DNA of 11,070 nucleotides from a virus, in UHGV virus genome UHGV-0129235, one strand, 5' to 3'. Numbering within the stretch: position 1 is the stretch's first letter; each line of letters starts with the position of its first letter. A program made the translations under genes and the position numbers. The notes below the pieces were generated by a model. It made no database searches, was not told where the DNA came from, and saw nothing but the letters and a program-made list of their open reading frames with translations. Shown here in pieces: positions 1 to 11,070 of the stretch.

Positions 1-33
1 ACGGAATAGAGATAACACGAGGAGTGGTTAGAA

Positions 34-66
34 ATGGCTAAAGTTCTGGTGCTTTTACATAGCTAA
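34..66 (+). pseudogene. wrbA: Displaced native 5' end of wrbA (RBS + ATG + codons MAKVLVL) running into island DNA and stopping after 10 codons; left half of attB
   Basis: atg gct aaa gtt ctg gtg ctt (34-54) encodes MAKVLVL, which is the N-terminus of enterobacterial WrbA as I recall it; gaggag SD at 18-23; frame then reads LHS-stop in island sequence. The same codons resume at the right edge of the window. Confidence 0.55.
46..60. other. attL junction (host-island crossover region, shared core GTGCTTT at 49-55)
   Basis: ctggtgcttt|tacat: matches wrbA through GTGCTTT then diverges into island sequence; same 7-mer present at right junction 11016-11022. Confidence 0.5.
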
Positions 67-83
67 ACACGTACATTCAACTA

Positions 84-98
84 CCTGTTAATAACAGG
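84..98. repeat. Palindrome CCTGTTA-a-TAACAGG in attP-proximal left arm (candidate protein-binding site)
   Basis: 7-bp perfect inverted arms around a single central base, ~30 bp inside the attL crossover. Confidence 0.4.
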
Positions 99-435
99 AC
101 AATATCAGGTGAATCCCTATTCAATTTAAAGGCATTTCCCCAAGTATCTATGCAATCCTACACAGATTCTATGCAGTATCGGTATAGTCTCTTTTTAGTC
201 TAACTTATTGAAATATATAAAGAATCTGCGAAGTCTCTTTTCAGGGTAAACTGTATCGTGTTAGTCGTCCCTCTCTCGACTCCTAGAAAAGTGCTATATA
301 CAGGGCTATATAACGATATATAGATGTTTGGTCACCATACGTTACAGTTGCAAGAGATAACAATCAGCTATGTGAAAGTTAGGAAGTGATGGTTATAGTT
401 ACCCTCCTAAAATCTTCATAGCTCCTTCATAACCA

Positions 436-561
436 GTCTTAAAAGGACTTCCTTTTGAGACACTTTCAACGTAACGGTAGAATGCACCCTCAAGTAGTCT
501 CAAAAGGTTGTTTTTGGATTATGAGACAGCTAAACTTATGAGACTAACTTTTGAGACATCT
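436..561. promoter_or_regulatory. res-like recombinase binding-site cluster and probable autoregulated promoter upstream of the small serine recombinase
   Basis: 26-bp imperfect palindrome GTCTTAAAAGG-actt-CCTTTTGAGAC (436-461); third copy GTCTCAAAAGG (497-507); direct repeats TTATGAGAC (519-527, 536-544) and TTTTGAGACA (549-558); GTTTTTGGATTA (510-521) resembles the Hin/Gin-type half-site GGTTTTTGATAA; possible -35 ttgttt (508-513) / -10 taaact (530-535). Confidence 0.45.
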
Positions 562-572
562 AAGGGGGATGT

Positions 573-1121
573 ATGGCGGTGATTGGTTATTGCAGGGTAT
601 CAACACAAGACCAGACTGTAGACAACCAGAAACTACAGATAGAGAAGGTTCACAAGGTCGATAAATGGTTTATTGATGAGGCTGTCTCAGGAGCTACAAA
701 GGCCACCAGCAGAGATGGTTTTAGAGACATGATGAACTATGTAAGGTGTGACGATACGTTAGTTGTGGTAGCTATTGACCGTTTAGGGCGTAATACCGTT
801 GATGTGCTCTCTAACGTGGAGTCACTACAGACTAAAGGTGTGAGGGTTGTTTCTCTACGTGAAGGTTTTGACCTGTCTACACCAATCGGTAAAGCAATGC
901 TTACTATGATGGCTGGTTTAGCTGACCTTGAAAAAGACCTTATCAGTGAACGTAGAAAGGCTGGTATTGAACGTGCTAAAGCTGAAGGGGTTCACATGGG
1001 AAGACCTGTAAAAGCTTCTTCAGAGGCTGTACAGATGCTTATTTCACAAGGTAAAACGAGGTTGCAGATTCAGGAAGAGCTAGGAATCTCTAGAGCAACT
1101 TATTACAGACTTGCTAAATAA
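573..1121 (+). CDS. Small serine recombinase, resolvase/DNA-invertase family
   Basis: 182-aa ORF; N-terminal MAVIGYCRVSTQDQ catalytic-serine motif, DRLGR motif, C-terminal HTH (LGISRATYYRLAK); SD aaggggg 4 nt before ATG. Confidence 0.9.
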   Translation: MAVIGYCRVSTQDQTVDNQKLQIEKVHKVDKWFIDEAVSGATKATSRDGFRDMMNYVRCDDTLVVVAIDRLGRNTVDVLSNVESLQTKGVRVVSLREGFDLSTPIGKAMLTMMAGLADLEKDLISERRKAGIERAKAEGVHMGRPVKASSEAVQMLISQGKTRLQIQEELGISRATYYRLAK

Positions 1122-1805: not shown

Positions 1806-2003
1806 GTGTCACATCCAATAATCAATGTCGGTCGTTATCATGGTGGTTCTGATGACTGGCGTACACCGTATCGTTTATTTCGTAACCTACACCGAGAATT
1901 TAGTTTCTCAATGGATGGTGCTGCAACTGAGCATGACGCATTGTTGCCACGGTTCACCGATGATATTCACAATCAATCATGGGTTGGTGAACGGGGTCTG
2001 TAA
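1806..2003 (+). pseudogene. N-terminal fragment of a phage Dam-type DNA N6-adenine methyltransferase (truncated remnant)
   Basis: 65-aa ORF with SDDWRTPYRLFRNLHREFSFSMDGAATEHDALLPRFTDDIHNQSWVGERG, matching the pattern D-x-W-x-TP...LF..L..EF.F..D.AA...NA....F...D.L.Q.W.G that I recall for phage Dam (Pfam Dam family); the expected downstream NPPYS catalytic region is absent in all frames. Confidence 0.4.
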
Positions 2004-2685
2004 AGATTGTTTAAGAAGTCGGTTTAGGGATTGGTAGATGATTCGGATGAAGCATCCTCATAACAATACCAATTAGAAGGTGGCTCTCCCTTTCTGGGGT
2101 TATCGCCTTGTATCTTAGTGAGTCCAGGAAGTTCTCTGTGAAGGGTCTTGTCAGTCCTTTATATTGGGTGATTACAACTTATTGAAAAATAAGAACTTTT
2201 AGAAGTTACTGTCAGATAGGTGAATACTTGATAGATACAGCTTTCTGGTTCTGTCAAGCTATTTTTTAATAGATAGCACAAAATGCTAAAGATACCCCTA
2301 TACCATCTCGTACAGGGGGTTTTGAAGGGAGTTTAACGGGGGTCTGTGTGGTTATCTGTTCTGGTCCTGTCCTTGAGGTCAAACGACCATTCACGACCAA
2401 ACAATCTGAACACGATAAACACTCTGACGATGAAATAGCGAAGTAATAAGCCTGCAATCAGCCCAACACCTCCACCAGCCCATACATCAGGTGACCCCAG
2501 CTCAGGAGGGAGATTTACCATTAAATTTCCTGTGTGCAATGCAATACCATGTGACATACATAGTTGATTCGGTTAGTTGGGCTTGTACCAACCCCTATCG
2601 AATAAACCTCATAGCCACGCCTTTATATTTTCCCTCTCTCATAAAACCATTATACCATAAATGTTAATAAAATGTTAAAAAATGC

Positions 2686-8511: not shown

Positions 8512-9300
8512 ATGATTTACTCTAATCAGATTCGTTACAGTGGCAAAGATGGTATCTATTTCCACTTAAGAGATAATGTAGATGCCTTCTTAACCTTATC
8601 AGCTACTGAACAGATGGAGTTTGACAGCCCTATGCAGGTGACTACACAGAACATGCAATCAGGGCAAACCGTCACAGATAATGTGCAAAGAGCACCCAGA
8701 ACAATCACTATTAGTGGTGTCGTTGTAGTTGGTTATGAAGGAAGTTTATTACTAACTCGTCAGGGTCAATTAGTAGAAAACTTCATCGACACTCTGGAAA
8801 ACTGGCGTGACCAGAAGCAGATTATTTCGGTCATCTGTAAAGACGGTATCAAGATTGATGATTCCATTATTACGAGCTTTAAAGCCTCTAAAGATGTTAC
8901 TATCTCTAACGGTCTTCGTATCCAGCTAACTTTTCAGGAAATTAACTTTAAAGCTATTGTTGGTCAGACTGATATTTCTGCTGCGACTGGAAAGGCCGCT
9001 ACTACAAATGACGGTGGTGTGACCAGTAAGAAGAATGCAGGTAACGTGACCACTGAACGCAATAACGCGCCTATGCTATCGTGCAAAGAGCTAATGAGTA
9101 TTAACGATGTATCCGGTTACGCTCCAGCTATCAGAAATGATATTCTCGATGCTCAGATTAAATGCAATAAGGCTTGGAAGCTGGACTATTCAGACTTAAC
9201 AGAAGCTGAAAAAACCAACGTCACCAATGCTAACAGTAACGCTGGTCGGGTAGCTTCAAAGCTTAAAAAGTACTCAGTGAACCCTCACAAAAAATACTAA
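8512..9300 (+). CDS. Hypothetical protein (262 aa), possibly a minor/distal tail protein
   Basis: ORF with SD aaggag 6 nt before ATG 8512 (preferred over TTG 8491); position immediately after the tape measure and a weak pattern resemblance to small minor-tail proteins; function low confidence. Confidence 0.55.
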
Positions 9301-10940
9301 GCGTCCACCTCTTCCATATCACCAGCAGGATAAATCCTTGTTACTGGTTCACCAAAAATAAGCATATCATCTAATGACTGCATCTCATCGGTTGCTTCTT
9401 CAAGCGTTAAGGTGTGGTCATCTTTACCATCAAGAGGAAAACCACGAATCATATTTCCATTGTGAAGATATATATCCACCAGCTTTTCATTACCAGAAAC
9501 AACAATCTCTTTCACCAGACGCTTAATAATAATCTGGGCTTCAGTTCTCCCCTCTACAGACTCCATATCAAGACCGCTTAAATCCAAGCTTGATACAGAT
9601 TTTACCCTCGCCTTTTCTCGTGATAACTGAACTATCAGTTCATCTTTTTCTTCCTGTTTAACCCGTAGTGCTTCTTGAATCTGAGTGATGTTAGGAAGCT
9701 GTATCAGCGTCTCAGTGAGTTTTTCCAGTTCACTATCAACGGTGTTTAGTCTGCGTTGCAGTTCATCTAATTTAGCTGTATCGGTTGCTTCATCGTGTAG
9801 CTGTGACAGTTTGCTGAACAGACGACTACAAAGCTGTGTATCAAGTAACTTTCTGGACACTGTACCGTAACTACAACGGGATTCTTTATTACCATTGCAA
9901 CGGTAAGTACCTTGATAAACGGGTTTACGTATCCCTGTAGGAGTCATTACAAGCCCACACTTACAACGGATAAGCCCCTTCAGTATGTTCACATATAGCC
10001 AGTGTTCACCGCTGGATGTTTTCCCCTTCCCTGTTTCCTCTAACAGTTGCTGTACAGCGTAAAACTTAGAGTCTGTGACAATCTGAGGATAGAACCCTTC
10101 AATTTCTTCACGTAACACTGTTTTACGGTCTTCTGTAGAAATCTTAGCGGGAAGGTAACCTAATACACTTCGTGAAGTCAGGATGTGTTTAACGCTTAAT
10201 GCTGACCAGTTGCCATCCGGTTTCTTAGTCTTGGATATTCTGACCTTACGCTGATTAATGGTCGGGTAACCTTGTTCGTTTAGCCATTTACAGATAGCAA
10301 ACATCGACATACCAGAAAGACGCTTGTCATAGATGATATTCACCAGTGACGCTTTATCTTCATCAACGATGTAGTGTGAACCGTCTTCTGATAGCTCTAA
10401 CCATCCGGGGGCTTGCTTACCCATAGGCTTCTTAAGTTCTCTTGCAAGCTGTGTTTTATGGTTCCAGACCTGAGCTATACGCTTTTGCTTAACAAGAGAT
10501 TCTTGGTGTGCTCTCTCAGCTATGATGATGTGCTTAATCAACTTCACAGGGTCTGTTAATGCTGATTTGTCGTAGAGTTCACCATCTCCCAGAGTCAGTA
10601 TAGAGACTCCTTTCCTCAGTATCTGCCTGACATCATCTATAGCTGTGTCGATATCAGCCCTACTGAAGCGGTCAAAGTTCTCTACAACAATCAGGGAACC
10701 TTCTGGAATAGCCCCAGACATAACATTTTCAAACATACGTCTGAAGTCAGAACCTTGAGCCTTATGTTGCTGGTGAAAACCAGATTTACCCTTATCAACG
10801 TATCTGTGAGCAGGAAGAAGGTAATAATCGTTTTTGTGCTTAGAGTAGAAAGCATCAATGAGGTTTGTTTGCCGTCTTAAGGAGTCTCCTGAGTCTTGCT
10901 CTTTAGTACTCCACCTGATGTATGTCACTAGCAGCTTCAT
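9297..10940 (-). CDS. Large serine recombinase (integrase)
   Basis: 547-aa ORF; N-terminal resolvase-type catalytic domain ([14 protein letters not shown]), extended recombinase domain, Cys cluster CKCG...CNGNKESRC consistent with a zinc ribbon, coiled-coil segment; start lies 51 bp from the hybrid wrbA start at the island edge. Confidence 0.92.
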
Positions 10941-10991
10941 ATCTTCGGACTATGCTTATCTAAGTGGTTCATTGAACAGGAGAACAATGAT

Positions 10992-11070
10992 ATGAGTGTT
11001 AAGGCAAGAATACTAGTGCTTTATTATTCCATGTACGGACATATTGAAACGATGGCACGCGCAGTCGCTG
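10992..11070 (+). CDS. wrbA: WrbA NAD(P)H:quinone oxidoreductase, island-regenerated hybrid 5' end (partial, runs off window)
   Basis: [26 protein letters not shown]; from LVLYYS onward this equals the WrbA N-terminus as I recall it; SD aggag 10 nt upstream is supplied by the island. Confidence 0.85.
11013..11027. other. attR junction (island-host crossover region, shared core GTGCTTT at 11016-11022)
   Basis: ctagtgctttattat: island sequence up to the core, then wrbA codons YYSMYGH continue. Confidence 0.5.

Follow-up and report, generated by a model that had tools for sequence, protein, structure and literature searches.

The locus considered here raises the question of where an integrase gene that begins beside the attachment site of its element finds its promoter in the integrated and in the circular state, and what becomes of the host gene on the other side of that site. 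The window, i.e., the whole 11,070-nt stretch that was analysed (UHGV virus genome UHGV-0129235), is a piece of Escherichia coli chromosome with a complete ~10.97-kb island in the 5' end of wrbA. At its right end, the gene for a large serine recombinase (int; 9297..10940, minus strand, ATG at 10940) and a hybrid wrbA (10992..11070, plus strand, ATG at 10992), which runs off the window and encodes 201 amino acids in the full record, are divergent, and their open reading frames (ORFs) confirm that a spacer of just 51 nt (10941–10991) separates them. The original prediction held that integration uncouples int from its promoter, the left arm of the island coming to lie upstream of int only after circularisation. 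Our analysis argues instead for a promoter (Pint) confined to the right arm, where it would overlap the attP/attR half-site and be active whether or not the island is integrated; judging from the sequence, we give this a probability of a little over one half (roughly 0.55).

The attachment (att) sites were obtained by comparing attB, attL, and attR with the empty site of E. coli K-12, their extents being inferred from the 45–50-bp size of serine-integrase sites (PMC5311408). They place the island in wrbA codons 6–7, into which its own large serine recombinase would have integrated it. The host site attB reads ...GTTCTGGTGCTTT|ATTATTCC..., attL reads GTTCTGGTGCTTT|TACATAGC, and attR reads ATACTAGTGCTTT|ATTATTCC. 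Because GT constitutes the sole bases common to attL and attR in the Klebsiella and Erwinia relatives of the island, we place the 2-bp crossover at this dinucleotide (49–50 in attL; 11016–17 in attR). Thus delimited, attL (25..74) consists of the host B arm, the crossover GT, and the island P' arm (51–74), and attR (10993..11041) of the P arm (10993–11015, with the conserved GTTAAGGCAAGAATACT), the GT, and the host B' arm (11018–11041). The reconstructed attP is ~45–50 bp, the size usual for serine integrases, and has inverted outer motifs symmetric about the GT (GTGTTAAGGC, 10996–11005, and GCTAAACAC, 62–70); as expected of a serine integrase, it is short and simple, has a crossover of 2 bp, and lacks arm-type sites. 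The P arm codes for residues 2–8 of the hybrid WrbA and, as read from the sequence, is like the B arm at 15/22 positions. Island DNA thus extends 76 nt upstream of int, up to the crossover, and the earlier statement that host wrbA coding DNA lies upstream of the integrated int holds only beyond 11017.

The attP junction itself was not found in viral contigs but is present in three metagenome contigs (L030, L031, and L032; loci retrieved for comparison are given by L numbers), where ...AGAATACTAGTGCTTT is joined to TACATAGCTAAAC..., so that all four sites of the system have been recovered. One of these (L031, an ERZ506742 contig of 11,233 nt) is a permuted full-length island with a 55-nt terminal repeat and therefore represents a circular or tandem form. 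These contigs bear out the expectation that the left arm comes to lie upstream of int upon circularisation. L032 is part of OOBX01000469.1, whose 23,009 nt, ~2× the length of the island, might represent a dimer or concatemer. Among 5,426 complete E. coli genomes, 74 (~1.4%) contain the integrated junction, with wrbA as the target every time, and the region 10900–11030 is ≥99% identical in 60/76 genomes; none of the 76 carriers was recognised as a model strain with a published map of transcription start sites.

The 547-amino-acid Int protein shows a Resolvase domain (residues 5–155, PF00239, E=6e-11) followed by a Recombinase domain (residues 194–302, PF07508, E=6e-20), whereas residues 319–368 score 22.1 bits against PF13408 (Zn_ribbon_recom), under the 25.3-bit cut-off; the protein also matches phrog_95 (E=2e-78) and contains the catalytic-serine motif YIRWSTKEQ at residues 7–15, which is conserved among its homologues. 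The gene is a single-gene unit whose 3' end is convergent with that of a Dit-like gene. As had been noted from the sequence earlier, it lacks a strong Shine–Dalgarno (SD) sequence: its best anti-SD duplex is nearly nil at -1.0 kcal/mol, versus -7.4 for the hybrid and -8.5 for the native wrbA. In three E. coli variants int has decayed, by a frameshift (L017), truncation to 464 amino acids (L019), or insertion of the insertion sequence (IS) IS3 that leaves 88 codons (L022), and both the junction and the hybrid wrbA are unchanged in all three despite this decay. In several genomes the island is additionally interrupted by IS elements elsewhere.

A sigma-70 consensus scan of 10500–11070 on both strands returned no site, in keeping with the earlier statement that the spacer has no recognisable -35/-10. 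This stands for the -35 element, which is poor, but not for the -10: the int strand has a 5/6 match, TATCAT (10992..10987, minus strand), formed by the last five nucleotides of the spacer and the A of the hybrid ATG. At a 17-nt spacing, the corresponding -35 position is occupied by TAGTAT (11015..11010, minus strand; 2/6), which is inside the P arm and adjoins the crossover. From these elements, the int transcript is predicted to start near 10980 with a leader of ~40 nt devoid of an SD. Across nine E. coli variants, a 96-nt segment comprising the junction (10927–11022) is invariant, and the adjacent 5' coding part of int differs at up to 13/140 positions.

This weak site was then compared with more distant islands. 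A scan of genome contigs with the single Int protein yielded no relatives, which were recovered instead by a protein database search, giving nine related loci that represent eight sequence-distinct versions from three other genera and unassigned metagenome contigs. Int homologues with 53–65% identity come from Klebsiella michiganensis, Enterobacter hormaechei, Erwinia, and several metagenome assemblies, and those with an identifiable upstream flank are divergent from a 205–206-amino-acid hybrid wrbA across spacers of 40–44 nt, with the conserved half-site GTTAAGGCAAGAATACTnGTGCT within the hybrid codons; the exception, L028 (53% identical), faces a different gene. A further relative (L012, 35% identical) is inserted in the middle of yecE, with a 34-nt spacer, an SD and GTG start codon, and ~27 nt to the crossover. 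Since the distance from int to the hybrid start is 34–51 nt in 9/9 related loci, we take this close spacing to be a conserved architecture and not a chance arrangement.

In every lineage a -10-like hexamer on the int strand adjoins the complement of the hybrid start codon, its end being 28–38 nt from int in the eight sequence-distinct relatives versus 46 nt in E. coli, where the leader is 7–8 nt longer. The hexamer is TATCAT in E. coli, and the counterparts are TGtTATCCT in Klebsiella and Enterobacter, TGtTAATAT in L009 and L029, TGtTAGAAT in L011, and TATGAT/TGaTACACT in the yecE type. Two versions approach a full consensus promoter with 10/12 matches, namely TTAACA-17-GATAAT in Erwinia and L008 (score 10.7 with a position weight matrix [PWM], background fraction 7e-5), in which the -35 TTAACA is the outer attP motif itself, and TTTTCA-17-TATAAT in L028. 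The candidate at this shared position has the best or near-best int-directed PWM score in the relatives, and the consensus scan found such shared-position sites as the only promoter-like matches in the 300-nt regions of L007 (Erwinia-type) and L028.

Hexamers of this kind fill 0.5–1.9% of positions, so that their chance co-location in 4–5 independent versions would have a probability of ~5e-5 to 4e-4, a figure that is optimistic because the lineages are related. Several other points also weigh against the proposed Pint. The scoring employed a home-made, approximate sigma-70-like matrix, cross-checked where possible by the separate consensus scan, and by this measure the candidate in the window attains only 5.5, which corresponds to a ~0.3% background tail, with ~2 such sites expected in the 170 nt scanned. 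Indeed, the int-directed candidates in the window (TAGTAT-17-TATCAT in island DNA and TGgAATAAT in host DNA) are all weak and at chance level in number. Besides its 2/6 -35, the candidate has no TG extension, and the start predicted from it lies among consecutive pyrimidines; the good TTAACA-17 spacing of the Erwinia type has been lost from the E. coli lineage through a 12-nt deletion. Moreover, A/T-rich spacers between an SD and an ATG can mimic -10 boxes on the opposite strand, and constraint on attP, or hitch-hiking with the conserved wrbA flank, could account in part for the invariant junction.

If Pint is placed correctly, the right arm of ~80 bp would pack together the P half-site (~10993–11015), the ribosome-binding site (RBS) and ATG of the hybrid gene (10978–10994), and the core promoter of int, such that the Pint -10 would overlap the hybrid start codon while its spacer and -35 would fall within the P half-site. 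Since no part of this core promoter would extend past the crossover, it would stay joined to int when the island integrates. We accordingly envisage a gene that would be transcribed weakly in both states, providing Int for integration of the circle as well as for excision from the chromosome, and that would be poorly translated because it has no SD. Int bound to attP or attR would cover Pint, and this occlusion would make negative autoregulation likely.

The same few nucleotides rebuild the host gene. The island contributes the start codon and the residues MSVKARIL, and host DNA past the crossover supplies the remainder of WrbA (native start MAKVLVLYYS), with the result that the new N-terminus is conservative (KARILVL for AKVLVL, with YYSMYGH kept). 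The start codon is preceded by the SD AGGAG (10978..10982, plus strand) at a distance of 9 nt. The product is annotated by PGAP/RefSeq as wrbA (201 amino acids, WP_000111568.1), and the same accession is present intact in 9/9 E. coli variants retrieved. In-frame hybrids with an SD thus occur as 201-amino-acid versions in E. coli and 205–206-amino-acid versions in three other genera, and every wrbA-type relative combines an in-frame ATG with an SD of -4.8 to -9.3 kcal/mol, even as the leader peptides differ (MSV, MSSSELRG, MTDEVRG, MQDEERV, and MQDEQRA). As frame, ATG, and SD are kept in all wrbA-type lineages, and the hybrid is intact even where int has decayed, selection to keep wrbA translatable is suggested, and from the sequences its regeneration looks selected.

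How this gene would be transcribed is less apparent. With ~11 kb between it and the native promoter, the hybrid must use island-borne transcription, as the original prediction had surmised; its further proposal, that the promoter lies inside the 5' region of int, fits the geometry, since a promoter and leader clear of int would not fit into the spacer and a dedicated promoter would have to overlap the int start, but only weak candidates are seen there. A PWM search for wrbA-directed promoters in eight lineages gave no consistent strong candidate. The sequence TATGCT (10951..10956, plus strand), 35 nt before the hybrid ATG, with C at 10950 and TA after it, is the best, though still weak, candidate for a -10: it scores only 4.7, not above chance, and its -35 would fall in int codons 3–5. 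The extended C-TATGCT-TA (10950–10958) looks sigma-S-like; relatives have TGcTACGCT or AATTTT 33–36 nt before the hybrid start. Recurrent wrbA-directed matches at 88–138 nt were set aside, being in conserved int codons and having poor -10 boxes. A 45-amino-acid ORF (10858–10995, plus strand), antisense to the 5' end of int, was considered as an upstream ORF coupled to the hybrid, whose ATG its TGA stop codon overlaps (ATGA), and was likewise rejected; the overlap is probably coincidental because the relatives lack it. Read-through from deeper in int, or no wrbA expression at all, is possible.

The latter leads to the alternative that survives best, though we deem it unlikely, namely that the hybrid wrbA is not meaningfully expressed and the island effectively silences wrbA, with ATG, SD, and frame being by-products of the attP/attB half-site similarity and of the Pint -10/TG motif. 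The likeness of the P arm to the B arm would alone keep the frame open, no lineage has a convincing wrbA-directed promoter, and the neighbouring Sp5 prophage simply leaves a wrbA pseudogene. Against this, frame, ATG, and SD are retained under five different leader peptides, the lost residues are replaced conservatively, and the hybrid protein is identical and intact in all nine E. coli variants retrieved, including those with a decayed int. The yecE type bears on this too: the insertion is at codon ~160 (L012, 9930–10000), with the SD GAGGAA ahead of a GTG whose frame is that of the 121-amino-acid C-terminal YecE fragment. The fragment is probably useless, which hints that the start is not there for the host gene, and as the geometry matches that of the wrbA hybrids, an outward start may be general to the int end of this family and not specific to wrbA.

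The alternative for int is the one underlying the original prediction, in a form akin to ICEclc, where circularisation alone places an outward promoter, Pcirc, in front of the integrase gene, beside which a weak Pint persists (Sentchilo et al. 2003, reviewed in PMC5812530). By this account an outward promoter in the left arm would drive int only in the circle, and any right-arm promoter would be negligible. The topology is correct for it, the circular form exists, the right-arm candidate of E. coli is weak, and ICEclc offers a precedent for the mechanism (albeit with a tyrosine integrase and a tRNA-Gly target). The non-coding left arm (51..572), which would lie upstream of int in the circle, has no ORF of at least 40 amino acids and carries short direct and inverted repeats. 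The sigma-70 consensus scan of 1–700 detected inward, plus-strand sites only, the one strong promoter-like site being TTGAGA-17-TAGAAT (455–483, plus strand), which points inward ahead of the small recombinase gene. With the PWM, applied to the reconstructed attP and to the real circle, moderate outward candidates were obtained on the minus strand, viz., TTGAGA-18-TACCGT (503..474; 8.7), TTGTTA-18-TATGGT (363..334; 8.3), and TAGATA-16-TAAATT (150..123; 7.1), but none exceeds chance, ~1 such site being expected in the ~2,800 positions tested, and no strong outward promoter that could correspond to Pcirc was found at the island end distal to int.

Comparative evidence weighs further against a left-arm promoter. 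The surroundings of several of these candidates vary among the E. coli variants, and the relatives, whose left arms are unrelated beyond the P' half-site and are much shorter (non-coding parts of ~85–130 nt in Erwinia/Klebsiella versus 517 nt here), keep the right-arm -10. Furthermore, without int expression from the chromosome there would be no excision, yet the circles and the presence in 74 diverse genomes point to mobility. We hence regard a left-arm promoter for int as quite unlikely. Nor does the proposed uncoupling find support, given that 76 nt of island DNA with a conserved -10-like box stay attached to int upon integration and no outward left-arm promoter rises above chance.

Other left-arm and junctional elements were considered as well. 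The idea that the palindrome CCTGTTA-A-TAACAGG (84–98, ~35 nt from the crossover) serves int in the circle as operator or activator site was discarded, its inner positions being variable among the E. coli variants, and a promoter split by integration (TTTAGC, 67..62, with TATTCT, 11012..11007, at a 16-nt spacing) was discarded because its score of 6.0 is at chance level. A second palindrome, which with the first flanks the att regions, is GTTCA-T-TGAAC in the int–wrbA spacer (10967–10977). The motif TTTTGAGAC/GTCTCAAAAGG recurs in direct and inverted orientation in at least six copies at 436–563, around and downstream of the inward promoter-like site, forming what, from its sequence, looks like an operator or recombinase-binding array.

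A promoter for int created by integration, by which the antisense of the wrbA codons Y-Y-S-M gives TGgAATAAT (-10 at 11028..11023, minus strand, with a TG extension) and the integrated island alone would have transcription entering int across attR, supplying integrase for excision, is highly improbable, for although it has the top int-directed score in the integrated E. coli configuration (5.8) and recurs in Klebsiella, Enterobacter, and L009 via the conserved wrbA codons, that score is no better than chance, the first T of the hexamer is missing, the -35 is poor, neither the yecE type nor L028 (which keep the island-borne -10) can be accommodated, and the circle would be left with no int promoter just where integrase is needed for integration.

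Returning to a right-arm Pint, one may speculate that the arm is a three-way switch linking expression of WrbA, a host stress-response quinone reductase, inversely to int expression and thereby to the readiness of the island for excision, a notion that we rate as very unlikely. The hybrid RBS would then coincide with the beginning of the int leader, the P arm would span both the Pint -35 and the first wrbA codons, and a wrbA-directed promoter near the int start would face Pint head-on with starts ~17 nt apart, the link being made by Int occupancy of attR together with mutual exclusion of the two RNA polymerases. Were this so, the outward promoter and RBS would serve, in the circle, the plus-strand genes of the island on the other side of attP, and it would be these genes, not int, that integration re-wires, in their case to the host wrbA promoter.

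On the left side of the island, the wrbA remnant (34..66, plus strand; native ATG 34–36, from comparison with the empty K-12 site) is reduced to a frame of 10 codons (MAKVLVLLHS*) with its stop codon in the island. Upstream of the window lies the native wrbA promoter, which together with the native RBS and ATG now reads into the left arm, and host wrbA regulation could feed transcription into the plus-strand island genes. The first of these, which in the circle is the first gene beyond attP and is divergent from int, encodes a small serine recombinase of the resolvase/invertase type (573..1121, plus strand; 182 amino acids; PF00239, E=9e-42; HTH_7; phrog_125). The other recognisable products besides Int are an HNH endonuclease, a tape-measure protein, and a Dit-like protein. 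A DNA N-6-adenine methyltransferase survives only as a remnant in the window (1806–2037) and as a partial 'DNA methylase' pseudogene in a near-identical record, the gene being intact in other E. coli variants (L016, 2526–3194; L018, 2586–3254). Several small ORFs have no family match, no candidate for a recombination directionality factor (RDF) was found among the island genes, and an Rfam search of the whole window gave no match. Across the family, members of ~7.5–11 kb combine large and small serine recombinases with tape-measure, Dit-like, and HNH endonuclease genes (the window and L005, L008, L009, L011, and L012), relatives have AbiJ/Abi_C or DUF4145 cargo at the far end, and neither a capsid or terminase gene nor a recognisable replication gene was detected; the family looks phage-satellite-like or defence-carrying.

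The integration module is reminiscent of those of the phiJoe/phiC31 type in its large serine recombinase, simple ~50-bp att site with a 2-bp crossover, and attP directly upstream of int (18 bp in phiJoe, PMC5311408; in the island the P arm ends ~52 nt from int), an arrangement that therefore brings host DNA close upstream of int in the prophage. It differs in its enterobacterial host, in belonging to an 11-kb island instead of a full phage, and in having an attP half-site that also codes for the regenerated host gene; the best match to Int among the integrases of a phage collection is only 29% identical. In KplE1, the intS promoter has been shown experimentally to overlap the att region and to be autoregulated (Panis et al. 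2010, PMC2951348). The island shares with it an int gene at the element end and, by prediction, a promoter overlapping the recombinase-binding att sites, an arrangement that predicts negative autoregulation and expression independent of lytic promoters. KplE1, however, uses a tyrosine recombinase with arm-type sites, the RDF TorI, and a tRNA target, as opposed to a serine recombinase, the 5' end of a protein-coding gene, and a promoter that is predicted only.

As for the fate of the host gene, the SpyCI islands of Streptococcus pyogenes likewise occupy the 5' end of a gene (mutL), splitting it from its promoter, and the downstream mutL is transcribed in SpyCIM5 from within the int ORF (PMC3430984). 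That promoter inside int is a cryptic rescue known from a single decayed island, silencing of the host gene being the norm for SpyCI; in the wrbA-type islands, by contrast, start codon and SD of the host gene are built in and conserved throughout. The Stx2 prophage Sp5/933W targets the same 5' region of wrbA, but with a tyrosine integrase co-oriented with wrbA and a core, TTGAAAC, at wrbA codons 15–16, ~30 bp downstream of the GT crossover of the island; it replaces the conserved N-terminal YYSMYGH segment, and its wrbA is annotated as a pseudogene (window 11018–11070 versus the Sakai loci L025, 780–960, and L026, 1280–1460). In an IMG/VR record (L033, 3100–3290), the sequence beside the hybrid wrbA start of the island is identical to the end of the Sp5 prophage, which suggests that both wrbA sites are occupied in tandem with only a few dozen bp of wrbA between them.

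In literature searches (wrbA with serine recombinase, hybrid wrbA, and tape-measure satellites) we found no description of the island; its separate ingredients are known, but the family and its 5'-end regeneration of wrbA are apparently undescribed in the searchable literature. Because wrbA is a key insertion site of Stx2 phages in pathogenic E. coli, the island could confound typing of wrbA occupancy by polymerase chain reaction and may interact with Stx-phage integration, and the compact int–attP pair native to E. coli may serve genome engineering. The attractive promoter-uncoupling model lacks support here; the promoter of int is most likely in the short stretch beside the rebuilt wrbA, a tidy but fairly ordinary arrangement. 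What the locus illustrates is that a mobile island can sit in the 5' end of a conserved gene at little cost, its attachment site furnishing the new first codons together with their own RBS.

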